From an uncultured Chloroflexia bacterium (GTDB lineage: Bacteria; Chloroflexota; Limnocylindria; Limnocylindrales; CSP1-4), in the NCBI GenBank assembly GCA_963828165.1, contig CAWHDR010000005.1:192001-256000 (forward strand): DNA of 64,000 nt. Direction: 5' to 3'. Positions 1 through 15,904 of the stretch are shown piece after piece. Under the pieces are notes generated by a model. That model had not been told where the DNA came from and searched no databases. It worked only from the letters and a program-made list of their open reading frames with translations. Both the position numbers and the translations under genes were made by a program. Every line of letters begins with the position of its first letter. Position 1 is the stretch's first letter.

Positions 1-6
1 TCGGCG

Positions 7-47
7 GGCTTATGAGTCCCCCTGCTCTACCACTGAGCTACTCCGCC
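7..47 (-). tRNA. tRNA-Met(CAT) 5' half (fragment, copy 1)
   Basis: Reverse complement reads GGCGGAGTAGCTCAGTGGTAGAGCAGGGGGACTCATAAGCC: acceptor 5' strand, D-arm and anticodon arm. Has one extra G versus the other copies. The few bases beyond it match copy 3's non-tRNA flank; the window edge hides the rest. Confidence 0.8.
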
Positions 48-127
48 GTGGCAATTCAAGATTACCGAGCGTAAACGGCCTCGGCAACCGCTGGAAATGC
101 AGCACATAACTATCGAACAGCACATAC
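9..127. repeat. att-like junction: tRNA half plus cassette left arm
   Basis: Near-identical to 1449-1567. Contains AGCACATAAC/AGCACATAC direct repeats at 101-110 and 119-127. Confidence 0.85.
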
Positions 128-1448
128 CTGTTCTCACGGATGTCAGCTTTTGCCGACGACACGGACGTACCATCAGGTGGACAGGGCACGATGTGCCATG
201 AGCTGGCACTCGGCGATTGAGCGACCCCGGAGGGCCTCCCAGATGCGAGCAATGGTGGCTGAGAGCTCGGCCCCCGGCAGGATCGCGTTGCGGGAGGTTC
301 GGGAGCCGGTGCCGGCGCCCGGTGAAGTGCTCGTGGACGTGCGTGCATTCTCGATCAATCGGGGCGAGATGAGGATGCTCGGAACGGCTAACGACGGCTG
401 GCGTCCCGGATGGGACTTCGCCGGCATCCTGCGGTCCGACGTCGAAAACGGCCTGAAAGCTGGCGCCCGGGTGGTCGGCATCCGGCGAGGCGGGAGTTGG
501 GCCGAGCAGGTGGCGGTTCACGAAGGATGGATCGCCGAGTTGCCTGGTGGAGTCTCCTTTGCTCAAGGGGCGACGCTACCAACGGCCGGCCTGGCAGCCC
601 TGCGCATGCTGAGAATGGGACCATCGATCCTCGGTCGCCGAGTCTTGGTGACGGGGGCCTCGGGCGGTGTCGGTCGGTTTGCCATCCAGCTGGCCCACCT
701 CGGTGGCGCGGAGGTAACGGCGATGGTCAGCAGCCGATCGGCGCGGGCCGGGGGCCTTCGCCAGCTCGGTGCCGATGACGTGGTCTCGGACGTCGACCAG
801 CTCCGGGGTCGTTTCGACCTCATCCTCGAGTCGGTGGGAGGCGAAACGCTCGGCCGACTCGTCACCAAAGTCGACGCCCGAGGGACGCTGATCATGTTCG
901 GCAACACCTCCGACGAACCAACCACGTTCAACGTCCGCGACGTCTACAACGATGCCCTCGTCCGTCTTCAGGGGTTCGAGTTGTTCTTCGGTGGCGATCC
1001 GTTCGGTCGCGACCTCGGGTACCTCGCCTCACTTGTGGCCGACGACAAGCTCGATCCTCAGCTCGGTGCTGAGCTGCCCTGGGAGGAGATCACCGGGGCG
1101 ATGGATCGGCTGCAGAATTGGGACGTCGCCGGGAAGGTCGCCCTCACGCTCGGCGAACCCGCGGGTTGAGCGTCAGTCGACGTACTGAAGAGGCACGACC
1201 AACCTGGAACCCGCCACGACATTCGAGGCCGCCGAAGCCGTCGCCGCGGCAGAACCGGGATCTTGGTTCGGGCGGACACGGTGCCAGATTACCGAGCGAC
1301 CGCTTGTGCCGTTAGGTGAGACGATGGCGAATCAGGTATGAGCTCTATCGGAGTTATGTGCTCTTGGCTCGACCGCCGATAGAGCCTATAAGTCACCCGA
1401 TTCGTGCTTGGGTCCCACTCGGGAAAGCACAGCGCATCGAAGAAGTGA
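48..1448. mobile_element. Non-autonomous cassette A (~1.44 kb) between tRNA-half repeats
   Basis: Bounded by repeated tRNA-half/arm sequences, one cargo gene, no recombinase. Confidence 0.6.
243..1169 (+). CDS. Zinc-binding dehydrogenase / quinone oxidoreductase (MDR family)
   Basis: GroES-like N-terminus (P.P.PGEVLVDV) and Rossmann VLVTGASGGVG. ATG 243 follows GGAGGG. Confidence 0.9.
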   Translation: MRAMVAESSAPGRIALREVREPVPAPGEVLVDVRAFSINRGEMRMLGTANDGWRPGWDFAGILRSDVENGLKAGARVVGIRRGGSWAEQVAVHEGWIAELPGGVSFAQGATLPTAGLAALRMLRMGPSILGRRVLVTGASGGVGRFAIQLAHLGGAEVTAMVSSRSARAGGLRQLGADDVVSDVDQLRGRFDLILESVGGETLGRLVTKVDARGTLIMFGNTSDEPTTFNVRDVYNDALVRLQGFELFFGGDPFGRDLGYLASLVADDKLDPQLGAELPWEEITGAMDRLQNWDVAGKVALTLGEPAG

Positions 1449-1567
1449 CTTATGAGTCCCCTGCTCTACCACTGAGCTACTCCGCCGTGGCAATTCAAGA
1501 TTACCGAGCGTAACCGCCTCGGCAACCGCTGCCCGTTGCAGCGCATGACTATCGAACAGCGCATGAC
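1336..1567. repeat. att-like junction (right arm + tRNA-Met 5' half + left arm)
   Basis: 1336-1487 matches 3836-3985 and 1449-1567 matches 9-127. Confidence 0.85.
1449..1486 (-). tRNA. tRNA-Met(CAT) 5' half (fragment, copy 2)
   Basis: GGCGGAGTAGCTCAGTGGTAGAGCAGGGGACTCATAAG, then diverges; no T-arm follows. Confidence 0.8.
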
Positions 1568-1636
1568 TCCCGACACGGTGCCAGGACGTCAGCGTCGCCC
1601 CCGGTGGACGGCGGAGGTGTGGCCTTTACCGAGTCG

Positions 1637-2368
1637 TCAGCCGGCGACGGCGAGTGTGGGCGCTTTGCGAGGCGTCGTCGCAGAGGCCGCTCGTGGCCTT
1701 GAGTCCTCAGGCCGGAACCAGCCCGGCATGTCCCGGACCAGGTCTGGATCGCCGTACAAGGCGACCGACGCATCGGCGATCGCCGAGCCCCACGTCTGAA
1801 GACCCCGCGAGATCGGATAGAGGGTCGTGGCGTCCGCCTCCACGTGGACATACCGCTCGGGTGGTAGGCCCGGATCGTCGAAGCAGATCGACGGCAGGGC
1901 GCCCCGCTCGAGCACGAGCCAGATCTTCTTGGCACGCAGCCCGCCGACCTCGAACTCGAGGACCGCGCGCCGCTCGGGCGCGGTCGACGGGTCGGCTCGA
2001 TGGGTCATCCACAACATGATCACGTCGGGATCGCGCTGCACCATCGCGGGATCCTCCGGGACCCAGCGCTCTGCCCAGCTGTGGAGCGACATGAGCGTCG
2101 GGACGAGCTGCTCGCCTGCCGGCGTGAGGCGGTGGGGTGCCGGGCGCGCCGGTGCAGAACGGCCGGTGCGCTCGATGATGCCGAGCTCCTCGAGCTTGCG
2201 CAACCGCCGCGCCAACACCGAGCGCGAGATGCTTGGAAGCGTGTCGGCCAGGGCGTTGAAGCCGAGCGACCCGTGGCTCGCCAGCTCGCGGACGATCAGG
2301 AGGCTCCAGCGGTCTCCGAGGTGTTCGACCGCCTTCGTGAAGCTGCAGTAGTCGCCTGACCCCTTCAT
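1637..2368 (-). CDS. HxlR-family winged-helix regulator with C-terminal SCP2-like domain
   Basis: YCSFTKAVEHLGDRWSLLIVREL...ISRSVLARRLRKLE, typical of HxlR. Confidence 0.9.
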   Translation of the reverse strand: MKGSGDYCSFTKAVEHLGDRWSLLIVRELASHGSLGFNALADTLPSISRSVLARRLRKLEELGIIERTGRSAPARPAPHRLTPAGEQLVPTLMSLHSWAERWVPEDPAMVQRDPDVIMLWMTHRADPSTAPERRAVLEFEVGGLRAKKIWLVLERGALPSICFDDPGLPPERYVHVEADATTLYPISRGLQTWGSAIADASVALYGDPDLVRDMPGWFRPEDSRPRAASATTPRKAPTLAVAG

Positions 2369-2398
2369 GGCTACATTCTCGCACCCACGGCAAAGCGC

Positions 2399-2421
2399 AA
2401 CAGTTCTTCGCGAGAACTGTT
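2399..2421. promoter_or_regulatory. Palindromic operator, probably for the HxlR regulator
   Basis: AACAGTTCT-N5-AGAACTGTT perfect inverted repeat in the divergent intergenic region. Confidence 0.65.
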
Positions 2422-2512
2422 CAGCTCGATGGCGGCGTGCCTATGGTCCCTCAAGAAGCGTACGGGTAGCGGCCGGTCGGACGGCGGGTGCGGCGTGCAG
2501 GAGGTCAACGAG

Positions 2513-3775
2513 ATGCAGATAACCACTTTGCCCGAATCGGTCGACACTCTGATCATCGGGGCCGGCCAGGCCGGGCTAGCGACGTCATGGATGCTGGGCG
2601 CTGCCCGCCAGGAGCACCTCGTGCTCGAGCGGCGCGACCGGCTCGGCGGAGGTTGGCAGGACCGCTGGGACGCGTTCACCCTCGTCACCCCAAACTGGAT
2701 TGCCTCGTTTCCGGGTTGGCCCTACGACGGCCCCGACCCGGACGGCTTCATGGGCCGCGATTCGATCGTCGAGCGCGTCGCCCGCTACGCGCATGTCGTC
2801 GACGCGCCGGTCGCGCTCGGGACCGCGGTCGAGCGGCTCACGCCGGCGAAAGGTGGCCCATTCCGAGTGAGGACGAATCGCGGCGACATCACCGCGCAGC
2901 GGGTCGTCGTCGCCACCGGCAGCTACCACGTCCCGCAGATTCCGCCGCCGGCTGCGCGCATCGCACCGAGAGTCACCCAGCTCCATTCGCACGACTACCG
3001 AAACGAGTCGATGCTGCCCGAGGGCGCTGTCCTCGTCGTCGGATCCGGCCAGACCGGCGTGCAGCTCGCGGAAGAGCTGTCCGACGCCGGACGCCGTGTC
3101 TACCTCTCGGTCGGGGCGGCCGGCCGAGCGCCGCGGCGGTATCGCGGGGTCGACATCTTCGGCTGGCTCGCCCAGATCGCGCGGCGGGGCCCAGAGTTCG
3201 GACTCGGCCTCCCGACGGTCGACGTGCTCCCGGACCCGAATCTGAAGTTCGCCGCCAACCCGCACGTCTCGGGACGAAATGGTGGCCACGATACGAACCT
3301 TCGGCGGTTCGCAGCGGACGGGATGCAGCTCGCCGGACGCCTCGTAGCGGCCGACGGCGAGCGCGTCACCTTCGCCGACGATCTGCCCGCGAAACTCGTC
3401 CACGCTGACCGGTTCTTCGACGATCACCTGCGGGACCTGATCGAGACCTTTATCGATAAGGCCGGCCTTGACATGCCGCCGGACGACCGCGTGCCATTCG
3501 ACTACGAGCCGCGTGCACTCACCGAGCTCGACCTGGAGAGTGCCGGGGTCTCGACGATCATCTGGGCGACCGGCTACGCCCTCGACTACGGCTGGATCGA
3601 TGCCCCGATCTTCGGCGAGCGCGGCTATCCACGGAACGAGCGTGGCGTGACCGAGATTCCCGGCCTCTTCTTCGTCGGCCTGCTCTGGCAGCACACCCAA
3701 GCGTCAGCGACCCTCGTCGGGCCGGCCCTGGACGGGCCGTACGTCGCGGAGAAGTTGACGATGGCGGCTGTGTGA
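2513..3775 (+). CDS. FAD/NAD(P)-dependent oxidoreductase (flavin monooxygenase, CzcO-like)
   Basis: IIGAGQAG, QLHSHDYRN, VVGSGQTG and IIWATGY motifs. AGGAGG precedes ATG 2513. Confidence 0.9.
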   Translation: MQITTLPESVDTLIIGAGQAGLATSWMLGAARQEHLVLERRDRLGGGWQDRWDAFTLVTPNWIASFPGWPYDGPDPDGFMGRDSIVERVARYAHVVDAPVALGTAVERLTPAKGGPFRVRTNRGDITAQRVVVATGSYHVPQIPPPAARIAPRVTQLHSHDYRNESMLPEGAVLVVGSGQTGVQLAEELSDAGRRVYLSVGAAGRAPRRYRGVDIFGWLAQIARRGPEFGLGLPTVDVLPDPNLKFAANPHVSGRNGGHDTNLRRFAADGMQLAGRLVAADGERVTFADDLPAKLVHADRFFDDHLRDLIETFIDKAGLDMPPDDRVPFDYEPRALTELDLESAGVSTIIWATGYALDYGWIDAPIFGERGYPRNERGVTEIPGLFFVGLLWQHTQASATLVGPALDGPYVAEKLTMAAV

Positions 3776-3835
3776 GTACGCGCAGTCACAGATCCATCCC
3801 GTTTCTAGGCTCGCTGGAGTGAAGGTACGGATTAG

Positions 3836-3985
3836 ATATGCGCTCTATCCGAGTTATGTGCTCCAGGGTCGACCACCGATAGAGCCGATAAGTCACCCTG
3901 TTCGTGCGTGGTCCCACTCGGGAAAGCACAGCGGATAGATCGGCGGGCTATGAGTCCCCTGCTCTACCACTGAGCTACTCCGCCG
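3836..3985. repeat. Cassette right arm plus tRNA half (array boundary)
   Basis: ~150 bp similar to 1336-1487 at an offset of ~2500; sequence beyond 3985 is unique. Confidence 0.85.
3945..3984 (-). tRNA. tRNA-Met(CAT) 5' half (fragment, copy 3; likely the displaced original 5' end)
   Basis: GGCGGAGTAGCTCAGTGGTAGAGCAGGGGACTCATAGCCC, with a distinct upstream -10-like TAGATT. Confidence 0.8.
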
Positions 3986-4055
3986 CACGTTGAATCTAAA
4001 CGAGGCGGGTCCAGAGCGGCAAACGCGGTCCCGATGGCCGACCGCCGGCGATCGC

Positions 4056-4382
4056 CTACTTGCCGGGCGCCTTGTACTTGATCGACTGGGCCTTCTCGAG
4101 CGCCGCCAGCGTCTCGTCGACGGTGAGCAGCACGGTCGTCTCGAACGAGCTCAGGGCTCCGCCCGCGCCGATGGCGACGGCGGCCGCGGCCATCGACACG
4201 TTGTCGGGGGCTTCCCAGAGGTTGTAGGCATCGTGGTCGCCAAAGGCGTACCAGAAGCCGTGCAGCTTGCCGCCCACCGATTCGATGTATTGCTGGGCGG
4301 CAGCCCGTCGATCCTCGGGCTTCTTGATGAGCCGCGCCCACGTTTCCGGGGTGTAGCTGAACCGCGTCAGGTACATCGGCAT
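4056..4382 (-). CDS. GYD domain-containing protein
   Basis: YTPETW...ESVGGKLHGFWYAFGDHD pattern; RBS GAGGAG. Confidence 0.85.
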   Translation of the reverse strand: MPMYLTRFSYTPETWARLIKKPEDRRAAAQQYIESVGGKLHGFWYAFGDHDAYNLWEAPDNVSMAAAAVAIGAGGALSSFETTVLLTVDETLAALEKAQSIKYKAPGK

Positions 4383-4426
4383 CGATGCCTCTCCTCTTCC
4401 TGTTTGCTGGAATGCCGGCCGACGAG

Positions 4427-6235
4427 CTAGCCCGTGCCCACCCGCGTGATGCCCACCATCCGATGGTAATGGGACACGAACACGTCCCGGTGGACCACGG
4501 CCCCAGCGGCGTTACGGACCGTCCGCGTGATCGACACGTCCTTTCCGTCGACGGGCCACTCGATGCGCTCGCTCTTCCCGCGTGGCAGGGACGACGTCTT
4601 CTGGACGGTGTCATAGCCGCCGACGACGTTGCTGACGCTGGGCCGACTCCAGGAGACGGTCCGACCGTTCGGGACGCTCCAGATCTCGAACCGGACCGTG
4701 CCCGGCGACGCGAAGGCCTTGATCAGGACCGGGTGCTTCGTGTCGTTGCGGAAGCGCATCGACTGCGATCCCGAGACCGTGGCATCCAGGCCGAGCGGAT
4801 AGCGGGTGATGTAGTACCAGTGCGGTGAACGGGTCACGATCTGGAGACCGGCTCGCGCGGCGGCATTGAAGAGCGTCGTCGAGGTGGCACAGATCCCACC
4901 CGCCAGGGCCTTGCCCTCGACCGAGTGACCGCCCACGATGGCCCCACCGAGGCGGTAGCCGGTCCGGAAGCTGACTTCGCCGATCGCGTCCCAGAAGTCG
5001 AACAGCGCCCCGGGTTGGACCACATAGCCATCGAGCCGACGCGCGGGGATCGAGATGTTCGCGGCGAACCCGTTGTGGGCACTCGGGGTGTAGTAGGTCG
5101 ACCAGCTGCCCATCAGGAGCACCATCGGTGCCTTCTTCTTCGCCTCTTCCGTCGACAGCTTCGGGGCGACCTGCATCGTCTTGACCTTGACCGCGTTGTC
5201 GGTCGCCGACCCCTCGAGCCGCGCGGCGAGCGCCGCCACGACGCCGCTGGCCGTGGCCTTCACGTCGAGCGCGCGTCCGAGCCGCGATGCCGTGACCCCG
5301 AAGACGCCACCGGCACGCGTCCGCAGGTAGCGTGCCTCGGTCGGGGCACGGTGGAGGTCCTTCGCGAAGCGCTTGACGACGGCCGGCACGCCGGCCGGAT
5401 CGAGGTTTGGCGCATAGGCCGCGCCCAGACCGTCGAACGTCATCCACATGCGGATGCGCGCCGCCCGGATCTCCCATCTCTGCTTGCCGTGGGTGAGGAC
5501 GAGCTTCGTGGCGATCCGCTCGGCGACCTCGTAGGCGCGCCGGGCGTCCGCGTCGCTGATGGCCGGGGGCACCGGGACGCTGTCAGCCGAGAAGTCGAGG
5601 GCCGCCGGCGACGCCGGATCGAGGAGGGCCGCCGTGATCGCCGGAGCGATCCCGCTCGTGTCGACTTCGACGCCGTCGACGGCCGTCGACATCGTCAGGG
5701 CCTCCCTGGTCGAGCTGACGCCGGCGTCCCGGGGCTGGCGGTATCCCCGCTCGGCGAACGCCGCCAGCTCGGCCGCGAGGCGATCCGCTTCGAAGCTCAG
5801 GAGCGTCGGCATCGAGACGGGTCGGGTCAGCTGCCGAACCCCTTCGAGCGCCTCATCGAAGCGCGTGCCATCGCGACCCACCGCAGCGGCCCGGTCGAGC
5901 ATCCCGTCGAAGTCGACCTCGCGAGCGACGACGGCGTACGGGATGACGGCGTAGCCGGTTCCCGAGCGCACGGTGACGGCCCCATCCTCGAGCTTGCCCA
6001 GCGCCGAGCCGAGCGCGAGACGGGCATCGGCGCGGGTCATGCCACCGATCGCGACGCCGCCGACCTGGACGCCCGGCAGGATCCGATCCACGTACGCCTG
6101 CCGGAACGCGATCACGCCCAAAGTCACCAGCAGGACGCCCAGCAACGCGCCGAACACGAATCCGCGGGCTGTGCGCCCCGGTCGCGGGATGCGCAGCGCT
6201 CGGACCACTGGTGCTAACGGACGGGTCACGGCCAT
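4427..6235 (-). CDS. VanW family protein with peptidoglycan-binding domains
   Basis: N-terminal TM, ILPGVQVGGV, C-terminal AGGICATSTTLFNAA...RYPLGLDATV. Confidence 0.85.
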   Translation of the reverse strand: MAVTRPLAPVVRALRIPRPGRTARGFVFGALLGVLLVTLGVIAFRQAYVDRILPGVQVGGVAIGGMTRADARLALGSALGKLEDGAVTVRSGTGYAVIPYAVVAREVDFDGMLDRAAAVGRDGTRFDEALEGVRQLTRPVSMPTLLSFEADRLAAELAAFAERGYRQPRDAGVSSTREALTMSTAVDGVEVDTSGIAPAITAALLDPASPAALDFSADSVPVPPAISDADARRAYEVAERIATKLVLTHGKQRWEIRAARIRMWMTFDGLGAAYAPNLDPAGVPAVVKRFAKDLHRAPTEARYLRTRAGGVFGVTASRLGRALDVKATASGVVAALAARLEGSATDNAVKVKTMQVAPKLSTEEAKKKAPMVLLMGSWSTYYTPSAHNGFAANISIPARRLDGYVVQPGALFDFWDAIGEVSFRTGYRLGGAIVGGHSVEGKALAGGICATSTTLFNAAARAGLQIVTRSPHWYYITRYPLGLDATVSGSQSMRFRNDTKHPVLIKAFASPGTVRFEIWSVPNGRTVSWSRPSVSNVVGGYDTVQKTSSLPRGKSERIEWPVDGKDVSITRTVRNAAGAVVHRDVFVSHYHRMVGITRVGTG

Positions 6236-6343
6236 CGGGCGAACACCTGCCTGGGACGCGGGCCATACCTGCGTCAGGTGTGGGAGCCTACGACACCCGC
6301 GTCCCGGCGAGAAGGGGGTAATCCGGGCGCGATCGCCCGCGCG

Positions 6344-7250
6344 TCACGAGGCGAACGTGTCGCAGTCGTCCGAGTTGCCGCTCCGGTAGCCCGCCGTGAA
6401 CCATTGGACGCGCTGCTCGGCCGAACCGTGGGTCCAGGATTCGGGGTCGATCCGGCCGGTCGTCGCCTCCTGGATCCGGTCATCGCCGACGGCCTGGGCC
6501 GCGCTCACGGCTTCCTGGACATCGCCGGCCTCGAGGTCCGACGCAGCCGAATGGGCCCACACGCCCGCCAGGCAGTCCGCCTGCAACTCCTGGCGCACGG
6601 AGAGGTCGTTCGCCTGGCTCGGGTCCTGCTGCGCGAGCTCCTGCACGCGCTGTGAGATCCCAAGGACCGTCTGGATGTGGTGGCCGTATTCGTGGGAAAT
6701 GACGTACGCCATCGCGAAGTCGCCGCCCGAGGCACCGAACCTCGACTCGAGCTCATCGAAGAAGCCGATGTCCAGGTAGACCTTCTGGTCCGCGGGGCAG
6801 TAGAAGGGTCCGGTCGCCGACGAGGCCGGGCCGCAGGCCGACTGCGTCGAGCTTTCGAACAGCACCAGCTTGGTCTCGGGATAGTCCTTGCCGGAGGTCC
6901 GAAACTGGTCCTCCCAGAACAGTTCGATCGACTCGACGATGTAGGCGATCTGCTGGTCGGTGTCGCTCTGGGGATTCAGCGTCCCGCCGGGCTCGGCCGC
7001 GCCCCCACCCAGGCCGCCCAGACCGGGGATCCCGCCACCGCCGCCACCGAGGATCCCGCTGAACAGCAGGAACAGCACGACGACCACGATGATGGTCCCG
7101 ATCCCGCCGCCGGCCTTGCCGCCCGGGATCGGGATGGGGATCGCCTCCGCCGCCTCCGCCGCCCCCGAAAACGTCGCCCAGGCCCCCACCCGTGCTCTGG
7201 CCACGCCGATCCTCGATCCGGCCGAAGCCGGTGTTCCGCTTCCATTTCAT
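6344..7250 (-). CDS. Neutral zinc metallopeptidase (YpfJ family), frameshifted near 7140
   Basis: N-terminus MKWKR..IEDRRG is in one frame; GPFYCPAD, HEYGHHIQ, ELQADCLAG and THGS are in another. Confidence 0.85.
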
Positions 7251-7374
7251 GACGTGCTGGGGTCTCCTCGACGCAAGTGCCGACAGCGTACGGCCGGCGG
7301 CCGCGACTGCGTGTCGCAATGCCGGCGGGCAGCCTTGCAGCAGCATCGCGTGGCGGTGCTCACGGAGGACGCGC

Positions 7375-7881
7375 TCAGACGACTTCGTGCAGGCGCCCGG
7401 TCAGGACGTCGAACACGAGTCCATGGACCGGCACCCGCCGCAGGAGCTGGTGTTCGCGCAGGAGTGCGACCTGGGCCCGCACGCTCGCGGCCAGGTCGCT
7501 GAATCCGCCGAACTCGAGCCCGATGTCCTCCGCCGTCACCCCGACGGCGGCGGCGAGTCGCTCGCGCAGGGCGGCCTCGTCGACGTCGTGGAGACCGCAG
7601 CCCGTGTGCTGGATCACGACGATCTCGTCCGTGCCGAGGAGCTGCTGGCTCACGATCAGCGAGCGGATGACGTCATCGGTCACGAGCCCGCCGGCGTTGC
7701 GGATGACGTGCGCGTCACCCGTCCGCAATCCGAGCGCCTCCCCGGTGTCGAGGCGCGCGTCCATGCAGGCCACGATCGCGAGACCACTCAGGGGCGCCGC
7801 GGTGAGCGCCGACCGATCGAACGCTTCCGAGTACCGCTCGTTCGCCTCCAGGAGCCGCGCGTACTCGGCACCGTCGGTCAT
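7375..7881 (-). CDS. Beta-class carbonic anhydrase
   Basis: CMDARL, RNAGG and HTGCG motifs. Confidence 0.92.
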   Translation of the reverse strand: MTDGAEYARLLEANERYSEAFDRSALTAAPLSGLAIVACMDARLDTGEALGLRTGDAHVIRNAGGLVTDDVIRSLIVSQQLLGTDEIVVIQHTGCGLHDVDEAALRERLAAAVGVTAEDIGLEFGGFSDLAASVRAQVALLREHQLLRRVPVHGLVFDVLTGRLHEVV

Positions 7882-7909
7882 GCCCGGTCAGCTTCCTGCG
7901 CGCCGCGGA

Positions 7910-9895
7910 TCAGGCCGACGGACCCTGGCCACCGGCGTAGCGCTCGATCAGCTCACCGATCGTGAGCCGGCCGTAACGCTCATCCAGCTGCTCCCGGGCG
8001 ATCCGCCACATCGTGCGGAGCGGCCGTGGACCGGATCGCTCGAGCTCATCGAGGCGGACCGCGGCGAAGCGCTCGATGCCGGGCACGGCACGCAGGTCGG
8101 CCGCCAGCCGGGTCGCGGCGTCGTCGACGGTCGATTCGCGGGTGATCCCGGCCGAGGCCGGTCGAGCCGGCCCGGCCGCCGTGTCGCTGCGCGGGGTGGG
8201 CGGCGCCGAGGCCGCACGGACGGCGCGCTCTGCGTCGGCGATCGCGGCGTCCACGGATTCGGGCGTGGTGAACCGCGGCGTCGAGGTACCGGCCGACGTC
8301 GGCGGCGTGGCCGGCGTTGCCGGCGTTGCCGCGCTCGCTGCCGGGCTGGTGGTCGAGGGGCTTGCACCAGTCGTCGCCGGACCTGCTGCGGGCGATGCGC
8401 CGCTCGCCGAGGCGGCACCGCCGGTCGCCGATGTCCCGCTCCCGGATGCGCCGCTCTTCGACCCGCTCGGCGGTCGCGTCTTCGAGCCACCAGATCCCGA
8501 CTGCGAGCCGCTGCCGGCGCCACCCATCGCCTGGCTGAGCATCTCCGGAATATCGATCCCGGTCAGGCCCTTCACGGTCGCGCCCGCCTCGGTGACGGTG
8601 CGGGTCACGTTCTTGACCATGTCGGACGCACCGTCGTTGGACAGGACCGTCAGGTGGTCGATGTTGCCCATCGGCTCCGCGGCCGCCCGGACGATGTCCG
8701 GCAGCTGGGAGAGGACGGTCTGGATGATGGCCGCCTCGTTGAACTGGCGGTAGGCGTCGGCGCGCAGCGCGAGGGCCTTGGCCTCCGCCTCGCCCTTGGA
8801 CAGCACGATCCCGGCCTCGGCGTTGCCCTCGAGCGTCGTCTGCTTGGCGACGGCCTCGGCGGTCACCTCGACCACGCGGGCCTGCGCCTCGCCGGCGAGC
8901 TTGACTCGCTCGGCATCGCCCTGGGCCTGGGCGATCGCGGCGCCCTTCGCGCCCTCGGCGCGGCGGATCTGTGCCGCGGCGTCTGCCTCGGCGGGTCGGA
9001 CGGTCGTCGCGACCAGTTCCTGTTCCTTGCGCGCCGCCTCGAGCTGGGCGAGCTCGGTCTGCTTGCGGGTGACTTCCTGCGTCGCCTCGGCCTCGGCCAG
9101 TGGCCCGGCCTGGGCGGCACGTGCCTGCGCCGCAGCGGTCTGGGTCTCGGTCTCGGCGCGTCGAAGCGCGACGTCCCGCGACGCATTGATCTTGACCTGC
9201 TCGGCCTCGGCCTCGCGAACGGCGGCCTCCTGGTCGGCCGACGCCTTGGCCATGCGCGCATCGCGCTCGCGGCGAGCCGTCTCCTGCTGGCCGATGAGCT
9301 CCATGTAGCCGGACTCGTCGCGGATCGCCTGGATCGTGAAGGAGTCGATCTGGAGGCCCGACGTCGCTAGGTCACCCTTCGCCGCGTCCTGGACGGCCTG
9401 CTGGAACTTCATCCGATCGAGGTTGAGCTCCTCGACGGTCAGCGTGCCGACGATCGAGCGAAGGGAGCCCTCGAGGACGTTCTTGACGATCGAGTCGACC
9501 TGCTCCTCCTGGGATTCGAGGAAGCGCTCGGCGGCGTTGCGGATGGACTCGTCGTCGGCACCGATCTTGAACGTCGCGACGCCCTGGACGGCGACCTTGA
9601 TGCCCTGCCGCGTGACCGCATCGGCCAGGTTCACGTTGATCTGGCGCGCCGTCAGCTTGAGCTTGCCGACCTTGTGGACCAGCGGCAGGACGATGACGCC
9701 GCCGCCACGCACGACCTTGAGGTTCTTGCGCCCGTCGGGCGATCGATCGCGCTGACCGCTGACGACGAGCGCCTCGTTGGCGCCCGCGACCTTGTAGCGG
9801 CTGCCGATGTAACTGATGATCAGGACGACGATGACGATGATCGCGAAGATCGGGATCACCCCTCCGCCGATGAACTCGAACACGCCGTCAAGCAT
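7910..9895 (-). CDS. Flotillin/SPFH family protein with long C-terminal extension
   Basis: TM plus SPFH (AAERFL, LEGSLRSIVG), EA-rich coiled coil, low-complexity tail. Confidence 0.9.
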   Translation of the reverse strand: MLDGVFEFIGGGVIPIFAIIVIVVLIISYIGSRYKVAGANEALVVSGQRDRSPDGRKNLKVVRGGGVIVLPLVHKVGKLKLTARQINVNLADAVTRQGIKVAVQGVATFKIGADDESIRNAAERFLESQEEQVDSIVKNVLEGSLRSIVGTLTVEELNLDRMKFQQAVQDAAKGDLATSGLQIDSFTIQAIRDESGYMELIGQQETARRERDARMAKASADQEAAVREAEAEQVKINASRDVALRRAETETQTAAAQARAAQAGPLAEAEATQEVTRKQTELAQLEAARKEQELVATTVRPAEADAAAQIRRAEGAKGAAIAQAQGDAERVKLAGEAQARVVEVTAEAVAKQTTLEGNAEAGIVLSKGEAEAKALALRADAYRQFNEAAIIQTVLSQLPDIVRAAAEPMGNIDHLTVLSNDGASDMVKNVTRTVTEAGATVKGLTGIDIPEMLSQAMGGAGSGSQSGSGGSKTRPPSGSKSGASGSGTSATGGAASASGASPAAGPATTGASPSTTSPAASAATPATPATPPTSAGTSTPRFTTPESVDAAIADAERAVRAASAPPTPRSDTAAGPARPASAGITRESTVDDAATRLAADLRAVPGIERFAAVRLDELERSGPRPLRTMWRIAREQLDERYGRLTIGELIERYAGGQGPSA

Positions 9896-10442
9896 CGGTC
9901 CCTCCCTCATGCGCCGAGGCCCCGGCCGGCGGCGTCGTCCATTCCACGATGAGTCCCGTACCGCCCACGCCCGTCACGCGGGCGACGGTGCCGGCCGGGA
10001 TGTCGCGCGCCGCGGTGGCGCTGAATTCGTGTGTCTGGCCCTCGGCCTTGACGAGCACGCTGCCGTTACGGCCCGCCGGGATGCCGACCTGGACGTAGGC
10101 GTCCTGACCGATGAGGTCGCTCGTAGAGAACGGCTGAGGCGCTTCGGCTCGTCGCAGGGCACTAAAGATGAAATACGCGATCGCGAGGCCGACGATGCCG
10201 AAGCCCGCACCCCACAGCGCGGCCTGGCCGCCGTGGACGTCGAGGACCTGCGTGGCGAAGAGCCCGCCGACGCCGAACATCGACACGAATGACAGCAGCA
10301 GCGGCATCAGGCTTACGCCGCCCACATCGAAGTCGAAGACCGCCCCGAGGATGTCGTCGACGAGGACGGTGATCAGCAGCAGCCCGCCACCCACCAGGAG
10401 GCAGACGACGAAGACGAAGTCCTCGACCGGGATGTCGATCAT
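9888..10442 (-). CDS. NfeD-family membrane protein (flotillin partner)
   Basis: TM helices plus OB-fold C-terminus; overlaps the flotillin start. Confidence 0.8.
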   Translation of the reverse strand: MIDIPVEDFVFVVCLLVGGGLLLITVLVDDILGAVFDFDVGGVSLMPLLLSFVSMFGVGGLFATQVLDVHGGQAALWGAGFGIVGLAIAYFIFSALRRAEAPQPFSTSDLIGQDAYVQVGIPAGRNGSVLVKAEGQTHEFSATAARDIPAGTVARVTGVGGTGLIVEWTTPPAGASAHEGGTDA

Positions 10443-10533
10443 CGGCGTCGCGGCCTCCCTCGTCCGGCGCGAGCGCGTCGGGAGGACAGGATAGCGACCC
10501 GCGAACCGGCTGCGCGTCCGAACGCGCGGATGG

Positions 10534-11022
10534 TCAGTCGGACGGGCCGAACAGCACCGTCAGCCAGCGTTCGAGCGGCGCGACATCGTCGGTCTGGGCA
10601 CCGATCCGGAGGGCCGCCGAGCCAGGCGCGTCCGGGGGCAGGGCCGGGGCATCCTTCTCGAGCGTGAAGGCGATCTCGCGCGCGCCGCCCAGGCCGTAGG
10701 CTCGGCCCTGCTGCTCGACGTAGCGCTGGCGGGCGATGAGATCGAGCTCTCGCTCGAGCGCACCGACCTCGATCCGGAGGGCGGCGTTCGCCGACGCGAT
10801 GTCGTCGGCGCGGGCCGTCGCGGCGGATGCTTCACCCACCTGACGAGCGAACGCGATCACGATCCAGGCGGCCAGCATCGCGCAGGCCAGGATCCCGATC
10901 CGCCGGCGCGTGATGCCCGCGATCGGCAGCGCGGCGAGGTCCGGAGCGGTGGTCTCGCGGTCCCGTGCGCCCGGATCCAGGTCGGACGCGTCGTCGGGTT
11001 CGAGGCTCGAGCGGCGGGACAT
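10534..11022 (-). CDS. Septum formation initiator (FtsB/DivIC-like) protein
   Basis: Single TM, coiled coil, YVEQQGRAYGL. Confidence 0.65.
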   Translation of the reverse strand: MSRRSSLEPDDASDLDPGARDRETTAPDLAALPIAGITRRRIGILACAMLAAWIVIAFARQVGEASAATARADDIASANAALRIEVGALERELDLIARQRYVEQQGRAYGLGGAREIAFTLEKDAPALPPDAPGSAALRIGAQTDDVAPLERWLTVLFGPSD

Positions 11023-11124
11023 GGCGGCGAGCGTAGCTACGTGCAGCTGGGGTGTCAACCGCGCTGGCGTGACAACCAAGCTGTCACACGAGCGCGGCAG
11101 CGTGGGCGTAGACTGCCGCCGATA

Positions 11125-11140
11125 CCGAACATCTGTTCGG
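11125..11140. promoter_or_regulatory. LexA SOS box
   Basis: CCGAAC-ATCT-GTTCGG just downstream of -10 TAGACT (11109-11114) and upstream of the helicase. Confidence 0.8.
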
Positions 11141-11162
11141 ATACAACTCGGGGAACCCGACG

Positions 11163-13481
11163 ATGCGCCTCTACGCCCCTGCCGATCCCACGACCGTCCT
11201 GAACGGCCTCCTCGAGGAGCCGTCCCTCGCTCGCGGCGTCGTCCATCACGCCGTCCTGCCGCCGCGCGAGGCGATCCATGCCCCGATGCCGCCATGGCTC
11301 GACCCGCGCATCGTGAACGGTCTCGCCGGCCGCGGGATCGAGCAGCTGTACTCGCACCAGGCCGAAGCGATCGATGCGGTCCATGCCGGCGAGGACGTCG
11401 TCGTGGTCACGCCGACGGCTTCGGGAAAGACGCTGTGCTACGCGCTGCCGGCGCTCCAGGCGATCGCCGAGGACCCGGCGGCGCGGGCGCTGTTCCTGTT
11501 CCCGACGAAGGCGCTCGGCCAGGACCAGGTCACGGAGTTCGGGGAGCTCTCGGCAGCGGCCGGGCTGTCGATCATCACCTCGACCTACGACGGCGATACA
11601 CCCGCCCCGATCCGATCCGCGGTGCGCGCCGCCGGGCAGGTCGTCGTGACCAATCCGGACATGCTCCATTCGGCGATCCTGCCGCACCACACGAAGTGGT
11701 TCCAACTGTTCGAGCAGCTCCAGCTCATCGTCATCGACGAGCTCCACACCTACCGCGGCGTGTTCGGCAGCCACGTCGCGAACGTGCTGCGGCGGCTCCT
11801 CCGGATCTGCGCGCACTACGGCAGCAAGCCGATCATCGTGTGCTGCTCCGCGACGATCGGGAACCCGGGCGAGCTCGCCACGATGCTGACCGGTCGATCG
11901 GCGCGGCTGGTGGACCGGAACGGGGCCCCGGCCGGCGAGCGCCACGTACTGCTCGTGGATCCGCCGGTCCTGGAGCCCGCGAGCGGCGCTCGCGGTTCGG
12001 CCGTGACGCTGGCGCAGCGATGGGCTTTGCCCTTCCTGCGCGCCGGCCGCCAGACGATCGTGTTCGGTCGCTCGCGCGTCGCCGTCGAGCTGCTGCTCAC
12101 CGGTCTGCGCGAGTCGTTGCGGGAGAGTTACGGCCCGCGCAGCCGCATCCGGGGCTACCGCGGCGGCTACCTGCCCACCGAGCGTCGGGCCATCGAGCAC
12201 GGCCTGCGCGACGGGGAGATCCTCGGGGTCGTCTCGACCAACGCGCTCGAGCTCGGCGTCGACATCGGACGGCTGGACGTGTCGATCCTGGCCGGCTATC
12301 CGGGTTCGGTAGCCGGAACGTGGCAGCAGTTCGGTCGGGCCGGCCGGCGGCAGGGAACGAGCGTCGCGATCCTGGTGGCGTCGGGCGCGCCCGTCGATCA
12401 GTACGTCATCCACCATCCCGAGTTCCTGCTCGAGGGGGCGCCGGAGGAGGCTCGGCTCGATCCGGACAACCTGCACGTCCTGCTCGCGCACCTGCGCGCG
12501 GCGACCTTCGAGCTGCCGTTCGAGCCGGGCGAGGTGTTCGGGCCCGGCCCGGCGGACGACCTGCTCGGCTTCCTCGCCGAGGAACGCCATGTCCGCCAGG
12601 CGGCCGACGGCCGCTGGTACTGGTCCAGCGAGAACTTCCCGGCATCGGAGATCTCGCTCCGGACCGCCGCGCCGGAGAACGTCGTGATCATCGACACGAC
12701 GCCGGACCGCCCACGGGTCCTTGGCGAGGTCGACCTGTTCAGTGCCCAGGTCCTCGTCCACGAGCGGGCGATCTACATCCACGAATCGGTGCAGTACTAC
12801 GTGGACCGGCTCGAATGGCACGAGCGCAAGGCGTACGTCCACAAGGTCGACGTGGACCACTACACCTATGCGAACCGGGCCGTCACGCTCAAGCCGCTCG
12901 AAATCTTCGCGGAGGCTCCCGCCACGGGCGGCCGGCGGATCCACGGCGAGGTCATGGTCGCGAGCCTCGTGACCCTGTTCAAGAAGCTCAAGTTCCTGAC
13001 GGACGAGAACGTCGGCTGGGGTCCCATCGACCTGCCGGAGCTCGAGCTCCAGACGACCGCTTACTGGCTGACCGCCGAGCGCGTCCGCGACCACTGGCGC
13101 CGGGACGATCTCGATGTCGCGCTGCTGGGCGCCGGGCGCGCGATCCAGACCATCGCCGCGGTCCTGCTGATGGTGGACCCGCGCGACCTCGGCCTGGTGA
13201 CGCAGGTCCGCTCGCCCCACGCCGAGGAACCCACGATCTACCTGTACGAGGCGGTACCGGGGGGCATCGGCCTCGCACCGCGCCTGTGGGACCGGCACGA
13301 CGAGCTGCTCGCCGGCGCAGCGGCGTTGATCACGGGCTGTGGATGCGACGGCGGCTGTCCGGCATGCACCGGTCCGCGGCTGGAGCCGAACGTTGATGCT
13401 CGGGCACTCGCGCTACGCCTGCTGCGCGAGCTGGGTGCCCGGGCTGATGCGGCCCCGCCCGTCCTCGCGACGCCGGCGTGA
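11163..13481 (+). CDS. DEAD/DEAH helicase with DUF1998 (MrfA/YprA/Hrq1-like)
   Basis: TPTASGKT, DELH, STNALELGVDIG, C-terminal CGCDGGCPAC. Confidence 0.92.
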   Translation: MRLYAPADPTTVLNGLLEEPSLARGVVHHAVLPPREAIHAPMPPWLDPRIVNGLAGRGIEQLYSHQAEAIDAVHAGEDVVVVTPTASGKTLCYALPALQAIAEDPAARALFLFPTKALGQDQVTEFGELSAAAGLSIITSTYDGDTPAPIRSAVRAAGQVVVTNPDMLHSAILPHHTKWFQLFEQLQLIVIDELHTYRGVFGSHVANVLRRLLRICAHYGSKPIIVCCSATIGNPGELATMLTGRSARLVDRNGAPAGERHVLLVDPPVLEPASGARGSAVTLAQRWALPFLRAGRQTIVFGRSRVAVELLLTGLRESLRESYGPRSRIRGYRGGYLPTERRAIEHGLRDGEILGVVSTNALELGVDIGRLDVSILAGYPGSVAGTWQQFGRAGRRQGTSVAILVASGAPVDQYVIHHPEFLLEGAPEEARLDPDNLHVLLAHLRAATFELPFEPGEVFGPGPADDLLGFLAEERHVRQAADGRWYWSSENFPASEISLRTAAPENVVIIDTTPDRPRVLGEVDLFSAQVLVHERAIYIHESVQYYVDRLEWHERKAYVHKVDVDHYTYANRAVTLKPLEIFAEAPATGGRRIHGEVMVASLVTLFKKLKFLTDENVGWGPIDLPELELQTTAYWLTAERVRDHWRRDDLDVALLGAGRAIQTIAAVLLMVDPRDLGLVTQVRSPHAEEPTIYLYEAVPGGIGLAPRLWDRHDELLAGAAALITGCGCDGGCPACTGPRLEPNVDARALALRLLRELGARADAAPPVLATPA

Positions 13482-14896
13482 CGACACCGGTCGCGGACGG
13501 GCCCTCGTCCGACCTGGCCCGCCGCCTCGAACGGTTCCGGGCCGCGGTCCGGGTCGCGCCCGGCAACGAGACCGATCCCCTCCCCCACGCGCCCATCCCG
13601 ACCGCCGACCTGGCGTCACGCCTTGCCTCGACGCTCGACGGCGAGATCGTGACCGCCCGCGGGGGCCGGTTCGTCCGGGTCGAGGGCCGCTCGGTCGACA
13701 TCCCGGTGGATCGGCCGCGATTGGCGGGACTGCCCGGTCAGCCGCCGGCGGACCGCCCGCTGGTCTGCCTCGACACGGAGACGACGGGCCTGGCGACGGC
13801 CGCGGGCACGGTGGCGTTCCTGATCGGGCTCGGCTGGTGGGAGCGCGAGCGGTTCCGGCAGGTCCAGCTGCTGCTGCCCGACCACGCGGACGAGGGGGTG
13901 CTGCTCGACGAGCTCGCCCGGCATATCCCGCCCGACGCCTGGCTCGTGACCTACAACGGCCGCGGATTCGACTGGCCGTTGCTCGTGGCCCGCTACCGGA
14001 TGGCCCGACGCGCCGCGCCCGTCCACGACGGGCACCTCGACCTGCTGCCCATCGTCCGGCGCCTGTTCCGCCACCGGATGGACGACGCTCGGCTGCAGAC
14101 GGTCGAGCGCGTGCTGCTGGGGGTCGAGCGCCACCACGACGTCGACGGCTGGGAGATCCCGGGGCGGTACCTCGGATTCCTGCGGGGCGGGCCCGCCGAG
14201 CCGCTGGCCGCCGTCGTGCGCCACAACGACGAGGACGTCCGATCCCTGGCTCGCCTCATCGCGTTGCTGGACTCGGGCTACACCTCGCCCGAGGCGCGCC
14301 GGGACGCCCCGATCGGCGACGTGGCGGGCCTCGCCCGGGCATTCGTGCGGGCACGGCGTCCCGAGGAGGCCCTGGCCTGTCTCGACGAGGTCATGGAGCG
14401 GGCCGATGCGCCGCTGCCGGCAGTGGTCGAGGTCACGAGACCCGTGGTCGCGATGACGCCACTGCGGACCGCGGTCCCCTGGTGGGCGCCGCAGGCGCGG
14501 GCCGACTTCGGCGGGCCGCCGCGAAACCGTGACCGCGGACCATCGAGCTGGCACCGGACGGCAGCCTTCGCCGCGACCTGGGACGCGCAACGGGTGGCGC
14601 TCGACCGGGCGCATCTCCTCCGCCGGCTCGGCCGGTTCGCCGATTCGGCCGAGGCGTGGGCGGGCGTCGCGGCCGGACCGGGACGCACCGCGATCGTCGC
14701 CTGGATCGAGATCGCGAAGCTCCGCGAGCACCGCCTGGGAGATCCCGCGGGCGCCCTCGAAGCCGCGCTCCGGGGCGTCGCCGCAGCCGACCGACGGCGT
14801 CACCTCGCGCTGCCGGAACCCGCGCTCGAGGCGGACCTGCGTCATCGACTGGCCCGGCTGCAGCGGCGGCTCGCTCCGCGTCGCACGGTCGCCTGA
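13478..14896 (+). CDS. RNase H-like exonuclease (MrfB/YprB-like) with TPR-like C-terminus
   Basis: LDTETTGL, TYNGRGFD, HLDLL, HNDEDV; GTGA overlap with the helicase. Confidence 0.88.
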   Translation: MTTPVADGPSSDLARRLERFRAAVRVAPGNETDPLPHAPIPTADLASRLASTLDGEIVTARGGRFVRVEGRSVDIPVDRPRLAGLPGQPPADRPLVCLDTETTGLATAAGTVAFLIGLGWWERERFRQVQLLLPDHADEGVLLDELARHIPPDAWLVTYNGRGFDWPLLVARYRMARRAAPVHDGHLDLLPIVRRLFRHRMDDARLQTVERVLLGVERHHDVDGWEIPGRYLGFLRGGPAEPLAAVVRHNDEDVRSLARLIALLDSGYTSPEARRDAPIGDVAGLARAFVRARRPEEALACLDEVMERADAPLPAVVEVTRPVVAMTPLRTAVPWWAPQARADFGGPPRNRDRGPSSWHRTAAFAATWDAQRVALDRAHLLRRLGRFADSAEAWAGVAAGPGRTAIVAWIEIAKLREHRLGDPAGALEAALRGVAAADRRRHLALPEPALEADLRHRLARLQRRLAPRRTVA

Positions 14897-14915
14897 CCCG
14901 TCGAGCTCGGGCTGC

Positions 14916-15902
14916 TCAGGCCTCCGCGTCGAGCGCGGCGCGGACCGGGCCGGCGAGCGCCTCGAGCGTGGGGCGATCGAACGGCGCCGGCCAGTCGAAC
15001 ATCACCGCGCCGAGGCCAGCGTCGCGATACCGGCGAAGCTCGGCGACGACCGTGTCTACCGGCCCCGTAAACGGCGAGCCCATCGCCATCCTCAGCGCGT
15101 CGTCGCGCGACATCGCCTGGTGCTGGAGGGTCGCGGTCAGCGCCTCGACGGCCTCCTCCCGGGTCGGGCGGATGCACGGCGCGGGCAAACCAGCGGTCCG
15201 CTCGATCGTCGCCGGATCGCGACCGACGACTCGACAGTGCTCGTCCAGGATCTCGCTCCGCCGGTGGAACGACTCGGGTGAGTCCTGGTCCGCGTTCCAG
15301 ATGTCCGCATACTCGGCCACGAACCGGAGCGTGCGCTTCTCCCCGCTCCCGCCGATGGCAAGCGGCAGCCGCTCCTGGATCGGTGGCGGATCGTTGCGGG
15401 CATCGACCGCCGAGAACCACTGGCCGTCCCGGGTCACCGACTCCCCGTCGAGAAGGCCGCGACAGATCGCGGCGGCCTCGCCCATCCGGTCGAGCCGCCG
15501 GCCAACGGGCGGGAACTCCCACCCGAACGCCTGGTGCTCCCGCTCGAACCAACCGGCTCCGAGACCCAGCGCGGCTCGGCCCCCGGTCGCGTGGTCCAGC
15601 GCCGTCGCCATCTTCACGAGCAGCCCCGGGTTCCGATACGCGGCGCCCGAGACGAGGCAGCCCATCCGCGCCCGGCTGGTCACGCAGGCCCAACCGAACA
15701 GGATCGACCAGCCCTCGAAGACCGGGCCGTCGAGGTAGCCCAGCTCGCCGACTCCCGCGGCGGCCTGCGGGAAGAAGTGGTCGTTGCTCCAGAGGTCGTC
15801 GAAGCCGAGCTCGTCGATGTCGTGGCCGATGGCCATCAGCTCCGGCCAGGTCACGTACTGCCCCCAGACCTGGAACCCGAGGCGAAGGCGCGGTGGAGCC
15901 AT
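14916..15902 (-). CDS. LLM-class flavin/F420-dependent oxidoreductase
   Basis: LWSNDHF, YRNPGLLVKMATALDH, GLGAGW, IGGSGEKRTL. Confidence 0.9.
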   Translation of the reverse strand: MAPPRLRLGFQVWGQYVTWPELMAIGHDIDELGFDDLWSNDHFFPQAAAGVGELGYLDGPVFEGWSILFGWACVTSRARMGCLVSGAAYRNPGLLVKMATALDHATGGRAALGLGAGWFEREHQAFGWEFPPVGRRLDRMGEAAAICRGLLDGESVTRDGQWFSAVDARNDPPPIQERLPLAIGGSGEKRTLRFVAEYADIWNADQDSPESFHRRSEILDEHCRVVGRDPATIERTAGLPAPCIRPTREEAVEALTATLQHQAMSRDDALRMAMGSPFTGPVDTVVAELRRYRDAGLGAVMFDWPAPFDRPTLEALAGPVRAALDAEA

Positions 15903-15904
15903 CG

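Follow-up and report, generated by a model that had tools for sequence, protein, structure and literature searches.

Why should a bacterial chromosome keep several copies of the front half of a tRNA gene beside a single complete one? The question is raised by a 64,000-nucleotide stretch of DNA from an uncultured Chloroflexia bacterium of the Limnocylindrales (the window; contig CAWHDR010000005.1, here C5:192001-256000, of assembly GCA_963828165.1). The assembly, here G000, comprises 3.3 Mb in 6 contigs at 70% G+C and is 88% complete. At the start of the window three 5' halves of tRNA-Met(CAT), each bordered by conserved arms, alternate with small groups of unrelated genes. We interpret this locus as a tandem accretion of three integrase-less mini-islands, inserted site-specifically in the anticodon-loop region of tRNA-Met with reversed (5') polarity, in the manner of cis-mobilizable elements (CIMEs), and we give this interpretation a probability of roughly 70%.

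Orphan 5' halves form an array upstream of the intact tRNA-Met gene

All tRNA-Met copies of the array lie on the minus strand and read, in tRNA orientation, from the acceptor stem to the anticodon loop. ARAGORN and a sequence search of the assembly identified an intact elongator tRNA-Met at C5 c[185104-185178], 6.8 kb left of the window. The three orphan halves lie upstream of it on the same strand, the correct side for cognate fragments of this gene. It is the single elongator tRNA-Met in the assembly, the other CAT tRNA being initiator-like by sequence, and is thus an essential, single-copy target. We number the junctions outward from the region directly upstream of the intact gene (J0) to the outermost half (J3). 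Between the intact gene and J3 are three units of 6.87, 1.44 and 2.50 kb, none of the three with an integrase of its own. On the far side, FtsH lies beyond the intact tRNA-Met, and a GYD-domain gene and VanW lie beyond J3.

An earlier prediction, made from the letters of the window alone, had described the three halves and both conserved arms and had proposed that the array continues to the left. Inspection of the sequence confirmed the halves, the arms and their coordinates, and the continuation was found as a P' arm of J1 at C5:191890-192005 and as the intact gene itself. The features of the array are as follows, where the two outer units are named after their cargo, a quinone-oxidoreductase-like gene (QOR) and an HxlR-family regulator with an FMO-like monooxygenase (HxlR/FMO).

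1-5, minus strand: P' arm of J1, core-proximal end; the remainder is at C5:191890-192000, left of the window
6-47, minus strand: orphan tRNA-Met(CAT) 5' half J1, tRNA nt 1-41 with an extra G in the anticodon stem
48-130, minus strand: cassette-type P arm of the QOR cassette; TTGCCG, 17-18 nt spacer, TAATCT; direct S sites at 99-109 and 117-127
1336-1448, minus strand: P' arm of J2, the outer end of the QOR cassette; S sites at 1336-1346, 1354-1364 and 1381-1391
1449-1486, minus strand: orphan tRNA-Met 5' half J2, nt 1-38, an exact match to the intact gene
1487-1567, minus strand: cassette-type P arm of the HxlR/FMO cassette; S site at 1556-1566 and a weaker second copy 18 nt inward
3836-3944, minus strand: P' arm of J3; S sites at 3836-3846, 3854-3864 and 3881-3891
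3945-3984, minus strand: orphan tRNA-Met 5' half J3, nt 1-41 with one anticodon-loop base lost
3985-4055, minus strand: upstream chromosomal DNA of the original tRNA gene, no S sites
4056-4382, minus strand: GYD-domain gene, chromosomal flank (whole flank 4056-6235)
4427-6235, minus strand: VanW-like gene, chromosomal flank, adjoining the tRNA in relatives with an empty site

Junctions are attP-like modules

Alignments made in tRNA orientation show that an internal junction is a module of ~235 bp consisting of a P arm, the tRNA 5' half and a P' arm. The left (P') arms at 1336-1448 and 3836-3944 are 85-88% identical and the right (P) arms at 48-130 and 1487-1567 are 87-91% identical; the P arm is missing at J3, where the upstream region holds chromosomal DNA only. 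The three P' arms of G000, including that left of the window, are mutually 76-88% identical, and the arms were found nowhere else in the 3.3-Mb assembly. The P arm (~80 nt) carries two direct 11-nt sites (S sites) 19 nt apart, followed by TTGCCG, a 17-18 nt spacer and TAAKCT. The P' arm (about 110-120 nt) carries an S-like site beside the core, a further S site in direct orientation and two in inverted orientation. The module borders are abrupt at inverted sequences, …CATACCTGA on one side and AGGTATG… on the other, beyond which the copies diverge fully, and both arms stop at identical bases in all copies. The S motif TTATGTGCTST, with up to two mismatches allowed, matched 12 times in 19 kb against 1.75 expected, a count that none of 200 shuffles reached; all 12 matches fall within J1-J3. 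At J0 the proximal hexamers are kept and the S sites are lacking. Identity to the intact tRNA-Met ends at nt 38 (J2 and the junctions of two congeners, G020 and G115) or at nt 40-41 (other junctions), which implies a crossover in or before the anticodon loop.

We considered whether the halves and arms might instead be functional RNA genes, either split tRNA halves for trans-splicing or a source of tRNA-derived small RNA. ARAGORN found no tRNA in the whole 64-kb window and Rfam matched only the intact tRNA-Met outside it, so the orphan halves are fragments; two of the three also carry indels. Such a role would suit the promoter-like hexamers upstream of each half and a P' arm that is conserved and contains inverted repeats. 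However, an intact tRNA-Met exists, no orphan 3' half of it was found anywhere in the assembly, and the RNAalifold consensus fold of 15 P' arms was weak (-10.8 kcal/mol) and lacked covariation support (covariation term +0.36, double changes in 3 of 19 pairs). We regard an RNA-gene function as very unlikely.

Empty sites and displaced cassettes in relatives

In three congeners (G024, G021 and G077) FtsH, tRNA-Met and VanW are contiguous, representing the unoccupied site that had been expected in relatives. The third half had been predicted to be the original chromosomal 5' end, and J3 indeed abuts the GYD/VanW flank that directly adjoins the tRNA in these genomes. On this model J3 is the original chromosomal 5' half of tRNA-Met.

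Among 131 genomes of the genus the P' arm is present in 12 and orphan 5' halves in at least 14, G000 having the largest array among the latter. The units of the genus span 1.25-6.9 kb, and their cargo is unrelated between genomes: a Ser/Thr kinase, an OmpR/HisK pair, LuxR-TPR with a monooxygenase, adenylate cyclase with RibD_C, a Phd/HicA-like (toxin-antitoxin) pair, a PEP-utilising enzyme with TetR, and a luciferase-like fragment. Arms in G115 and G106 match the J2 arm at 96% identity and border different DNA; the same arms do surround different cargo, as had been anticipated.

This recurrence bears on the objection that the repeats arose by duplication on the spot or are an artefact of assembly. 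The assembly is metagenomic and in 6 contigs, and repeats of 40-230 bp in a repeat-rich region can mislead assemblers. However, the junctions differ from each other, with 76-88% arm identity, an insertion in J1 and a deletion in J3, unlike collapsed or duplicated reads, and the architecture was met again in no fewer than 14 independent genomes and in 27 metagenome contigs. We consider an artefact extremely improbable.

The order of insertion can be read from cassettes shared between genomes. One that is proximal to the tRNA in G065 is internal in G070, behind an integrase element (95-96% identity over 2.2 kb). Another is proximal in G069 and internal in metagenome contig L150 (88% over 1.3 kb), and a third is proximal in G122 and internal in contigs L149 and L153 (90% over 0.9-1.9 kb). 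Cassettes that are proximal in one genome and internal in another are what insertion at the intact tRNA predicts, and these three cases support the successive insertion put forward at the outset. An HxlR-type cassette lies beside the chromosome in G122 and beside another cassette in L136, which would require independent integration or precise loss. Two arrays, in G070 and G147, terminate in an integrase element.

Two loci have features of their own. In G147 (L126, tRNA orientation 2330-2455) a decayed cassette-type P arm precedes the displaced 5' half of the 4.8-kb integrase element, implying an older cassette further out. In G106 (L032, tRNA orientation 5700-16630) the order is an integrase-type P arm, a half, a P' arm, a VanW C-terminal fragment, a 5.7-kb repeat-protein gene, a chromosomal-type upstream region and the intact tRNA, an order that we did not manage to explain by simple integration; the repeat-protein gene sits outside the array in G103.

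A small Xer-like integrase lies at the same site in congeners

In congeners an Xer-like tyrosine integrase of 314-339 aa lies upstream of and divergent from the intact tRNA-Met. It adjoins the gene in G022, G070, G045, G018, G064 and G147, the G022 copy being frameshifted, probably by assembly errors. Among GTDB representatives it stands beside tRNA-Met in 14, at a distance of 105-108 nt (~106 nt) in 11 of them. Pfam recognized a SAM-like core-binding domain and a Phage_integrase catalytic domain in the G085 and G147 proteins. Among solved structures XerD (1a0p) and XerA (5hxy/4a8e) come closest, with E about 1e-20, and the R, K, HxxR, W and Y positions in the G070 translation appear, on reading by eye, to be the catalytic residues. 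The same clade occurs likewise at tRNA-Gly, -Lys, -Arg, -Val and -Pro. Over 67 loci of the clade the tRNA is divergent (reversed polarity) in 30 and co-directional (conventional) in 26, and no tRNA lies within 250 bp in 11; in the viral collection only 2 loci were related to this integrase.

Complete elements are small. The element of G085 at tRNA-Gly is 6.07 kb and is bounded by a displaced 5' fragment of nt 1-39, and that of G147 at tRNA-Met is 4.81 kb, with a displaced 5' fragment and with integrase, HTH_17, PIN, AbiEi-like and RES genes. The P' arm of the G147 element is of the cassette type. In G070 (L038, tRNA orientation 10054-10140) there is also a 29-aa copy of the integrase C-terminus, 83% identical and 1.2 kb from the intact integrase gene.

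The original prediction had reported no recombinase among the cassettes and looked to a tyrosine recombinase nearby. The first statement holds. Pfam searches of the cassette cargo gave no recombinase, and in G000 the tyrosine recombinase family PF00589 matched only at C5:119473, C5:160719 and C1:454536 and the serine recombinase family PF00239 only at C5:10244, none within 24 kb of the array. The second is borne out in part: congeners encode an enzyme that crosses over in the anticodon loop and duplicates the 5' part of the tRNA, and none close to it is present in G000. The nearest tyrosine recombinases are a pair about 25 and 67 kb away; they are syntenic in every relative examined and look like the housekeeping XerC/XerD. 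The tyrosine recombinase at C1:454.5 kb has no adjoining tRNA and no S motifs or flanking repeats within ±55-65 kb, and was rejected as the enzyme of the array for want of S motifs and flanking repeats; the serine recombinase was rejected because it is 175 kb away.

These results also address the comparison with integrons from which the prediction started. A true integron-type platform would consist of a resident recombinase that brings promoterless cassettes to a fixed site through folded attC-like sites, and it would account for small unrelated gene units attached to a conserved recombination module and for the inverted repeats in the arms. Here, however, no tyrosine or serine recombinase lies within 24 kb and there is no intI or attI. 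Where an integrase does occur it belongs to the newest unit, carried on a small element. The cargo lies on both strands, and the junctions are ~235-bp attP-like modules with a tRNA half, with no hairpin support in the arms. An integron platform is therefore highly improbable, and the integron-like structure was abandoned.

Proposed mechanism of accretion

In tRNA orientation each unit consists of a P' arm, the cargo (1-4 ordinary genes), a P arm with promoter-like hexamers, and tRNA nt 1-38/41. A circle carrying P arm, 5' half and P' arm, an attP of ~235 bp with inverted-repeat bounds, would recombine with the intact tRNA as attB. From then on the working copy of the essential tRNA would have its promoter and 5' half from the incoming unit, and the old 5' half would be displaced outward. 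Repetition would give the order chromosome, J3, the FMO and HxlR genes, J2, QOR, J1, a response regulator, Bmp, histidine kinase and SpoIIE genes, and the intact tRNA. The catalyst would be the Xer-like integrase clade seen in congeners on 4-6 kb elements. Since G000 lacks the cognate integrase, its array is probably in a frozen state for now.

An integrase element most likely carries the integrase-less units along or serves them, through cis-mobilisation by accretion or through an integrase supplied in trans; the arrays of G070 and G147 that end in an integrase element fit cis-mobilisation. After excision of such a helper, the P arm and 5' half of the tRNA-adjacent cassette would themselves form a working tRNA, which would account for the complete upstream module that the cassette lineage retains.

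Several observations weigh against accretion of mobile integrase-less units. G000 encodes no close cognate of the integrase, its best match being 38-40% identical (C1:454497-455153). The integrase consists of two domains, neither of them recognisable as arm-binding, so that it may or may not be the protein that reads the S sites. A sigma-70 consensus scan flagged none of the conserved hexamer pairs; because it made no call, we only infer that the P-arm hexamers serve as the tRNA promoter. The 6.9-kb unit, which is the youngest on the model, lacks P-arm S sites, as does the single cassette of G065, suggesting either fast arm decay or entry of such units by another way. Of 9 genomes compared, only 5 have a best arm identity above the ftsH nucleotide identity, and in the other 4 it is below. 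G106 and G122 have an integrase-type P arm without an integrase, implying that decay of autonomous elements also happens. The relatives are all metagenome-assembled genomes or metagenome contigs, and no circular form, excision joint or population polymorphism was seen in the reads, which gave short contigs of other samples. Among public sequencing runs none contained more than 23% of the sampled words of window positions 1-4300, and 4 runs yielded short contigs of other organisms. One run (X18) gave near-identical QOR-cassette contigs and a possible joint between the tRNA region and the QOR P arm; its joints are short and nothing was drawn from it.

A distinct cassette lineage or decayed elements

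The units might also be decay remnants only, once full integrase elements that were later stripped and were never mobile without an integrase. This is the classical origin of CIMEs and follows the published paradigm of integration, decay and accretion (PMC5704250). It is in keeping with the integrase-less arms of G106 and G122, with the 29-aa integrase fragment inside the G070 element, and with damaged arms elsewhere: the P' arm of G020 breaks off after 57 nt, and there are no S sites in the P arms belonging to G065 and to unit 0 of G000.

The P arms themselves argue for a different origin. At 14 of 14 GTDB tRNA-Met loci with an integrase the P arm has S sites 40-50 nt apart and other hexamers (the integrase type), and the cassette-type P arm, with its S sites 19 nt apart and its own promoter-like pair, was found at none of the 14. 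The S motifs are common to both types. The cassette type occurs at 9 junctions in 8 genomes of the genus, with a tenth, decayed, in G020, and in 29 copies in 27 metagenome contigs, where it is followed by an intact tRNA in 7 cases, a 5' half in 16, the contig end in 3 and no detectable half in 3. No integrase is encoded in any of these 27 contigs and none adjoins the 9 genus copies; tblastn of the cassette loci of the genus revealed no integrase remnant except the 29-aa piece in G070. As the cassette-type P arm was never seen with an integrase, the integrase-less units look like a separate non-autonomous lineage, judged from sequence comparison. In addition, the start of the integrase gene, ~106 nt away from the tRNA, falls right at the P arm's outer edge, so that deletions would repeatedly have had to remove it cleanly while sparing both S sites, which is unlikely. 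Both arms also end sharply at the same bases in all copies, and Pfam searches of the cassette ORFs of G000 and the genus loci found no phage or conjugation gene remnants in the cargo. Decay alone is thus an unlikely explanation for the cassettes, though one with real weight, and we favor the accretion of mobile integrase-less units.

Cargo and its origin

The unit beside the intact tRNA-Met encodes a response regulator, a Bmp-type binding protein, a HAMP-GAF histidine kinase and a GAF-SpoIIE phosphatase. The cargo of the two units in the window, which like the rest occurs on both strands, is listed here.

150-1169, plus strand: QOR, Zn-dependent dehydrogenase/quinone-oxidoreductase-like, cargo of cassette 2 (Pfam ADH_zinc_N, ADH_N); the start codon is probably the ATG at 243
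1168-1201, no strand assigned: remnant of an msrA 3'-end repeat, ~34 nt, beside QOR, a trace of the cargo source
1637-2368, minus strand: HxlR-family winged-helix regulator, cargo of cassette 3 (Pfam HxlR)
2429-3775, plus strand: FAD-dependent monooxygenase (FMO-like), cargo of cassette 3 (Pfam Pyr_redox_3)

QOR is 92-94% identical at the nucleotide level to a chromosomal QOR in five congeners (G093, G015, G113, G100 and G125), where the gene is flanked on each side by a ~95-nt direct repeat of the 3' end of msrA. At the msrA 3' site G000 has a different 1.25-kb insert, and its sole QOR is the copy in the tRNA-Met cassette. Because the cassette QOR retains ~34 nt of the msrA-end repeat, cargo appears to move between hot spots with scraps of its old flanks. 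The msrA 3' end is a second insertion hot spot (C1:about 311,150-312,500 in G000; L128:3864-5051). The FMO gene has no close copy in the genus, the best being 64% identical. Homologues of the HxlR gene, 55-56% identical to that of the window, lie just upstream of a cassette-type P arm and co-directional with the tRNA six times in 5 of the 27 metagenome contigs (L153, L142, L161, L136 and L149) and also in G122 (L055). This recurrence may mean that the cassettes concerned form one family by descent, or that the regulator has a function at the arm.

A broader scheme is possible, and we offer it tentatively. Limnocylindrales-type Chloroflexota could harbor a dedicated family of non-autonomous cassettes that carry 1-10 kb of chromosomal-type genes, flanked by the conserved P' arm and by a cassette-specific P arm with a tRNA promoter and the tRNA-Met 5' half. 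These would be shuttled in cis or in trans by 4-6 kb Xer-like elements stabilised by toxin-antitoxin genes and left behind when the helper leaves, their cargo having been captured from chromosomal hot spots, as QOR with its msrA-end repeat may have been.

Other tRNA features of the genome

G000 also contains 3' fragments of tRNA genes. Two fragments of tRNA-Gln(CTG) at C1:159890-159938 and 163414-163461 lie 20.6 and 24.2 kb downstream of the gene, and a fragment of tRNA-Lys(CTT) at C1:21646-21690 lies 1.9 kb downstream of its gene, implying that islands of ordinary polarity are present in this genome as well, two of them in tandem. ARAGORN found no tmRNA gene in the assembly. It also made over-long tRNA calls of 92-100 nt for Arg, Pro and His and for one with a 4-base anticodon, which may be false or intron-bearing.

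Implications

The locus shows that tRNA genes can accrete units in tandem with the rare 5' polarity. The array further suggests that a whole integrase-less lineage can persist beside very small helpers in an abundant, uncultured group of soil bacteria. Since island finders such as Islander by design demand an integrase for each island and overlook integrase-less arrays, gene flux of this sort probably goes under-counted. With its compact attP (~235 bp), its defined attB (the tRNA-Met anticodon arm) and a small Xer-like integrase, the locus would offer a simple system for studying arm-site function without an arm-binding domain. If the broader, tentative scheme given above is true, it would amount to distributed gene capture on an essential tRNA, which would parallel integrons in function and be built from attP/attB recombination.

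Comparison with known systems

The concept behind the original prediction has been published before: tandem integrase-less accretion bounded by att sites and 5' tRNA gene (tDNA) fragments are described in earlier reports (PMC5704250, PMC3146451, PMC4383910, PMC6563490). The closest parallels are the CIMEs and tandem accretions of the ICESt1/ICESt3 family (ICEs, or integrative and conjugative elements; PMC5704250). As described there, these lack integration and transfer genes, keep attL and attR, and stand in tandem at one target gene, in some genomes with a functional integrase element proximal to the target. The relationship expected of a CIME is present here, the cassette P' arm being homologous to that of the G147 integrase element and the S motifs being common with integrase-type P arms. 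Unlike in those CIMEs, the 5' part of a tRNA serves as target end, and each unit must therefore carry a promoter and a 5' half. The units, of only 1.3-10 kb, hold 1-4 genes of housekeeping type and show no remnants of an ICE. Their P arm is of a type of its own that was never seen with an integrase, and the helper is 4-6 kb without recognised conjugation genes.

The ssrA islands of Dehalococcoides share the phylum, the tandem arrangement at a t(m)RNA gene and direct repeats of that gene; some lack an integration module, and the authors propose CIMEs moved by accretion (PMC3146451). In contrast, the array here is associated with an Xer-like tyrosine enzyme, duplicates a 5' half of 38-41 nt with ~200 nt of arms, and consists of much smaller units.

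Recombination with the 5' part of tRNA genes is considerably less frequent (PMC6563490, citing Zhao and Williams 2002), and Islander reports a 5' tDNA fragment in 159 of 3919 islands (PMC4383910). Such islands, so far as these sources describe them, resemble the array in an anticodon-region crossover, upstream displacement of the 5' fragment and restoration of the gene by the element. By the features that Islander uses, the array has an intact tDNA with cognate fragments and an empty site in relatives, and it lacks an integrase for each island. Islander accepts arrays only if each member has an integrase (PMC4383910), whereas here three of three units are without one. The dusA-specific integrases likewise insert at the 5' end and replace the front of the gene; in that system, unlike here, a protein-coding gene is the target, and large islands carry an integrase of their own (PMC4482086).

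Integron cassettes are alike in function only, as small unrelated units gathered at one site with the newest nearest to it. Here, by contrast, there is no intI/attI and no attC, the arms are double-stranded, attP-like and ~235 bp, the units are larger, and the cargo, found on both strands, presumably brings promoters of its own. A literature search in a limited collection returned no description of Limnocylindria cassettes at tRNA-Met. The system differs from those known in its reversed polarity at an essential single-copy tRNA, its very small units, its integrase-free type of P arm and its tiny toxin-antitoxin helpers.

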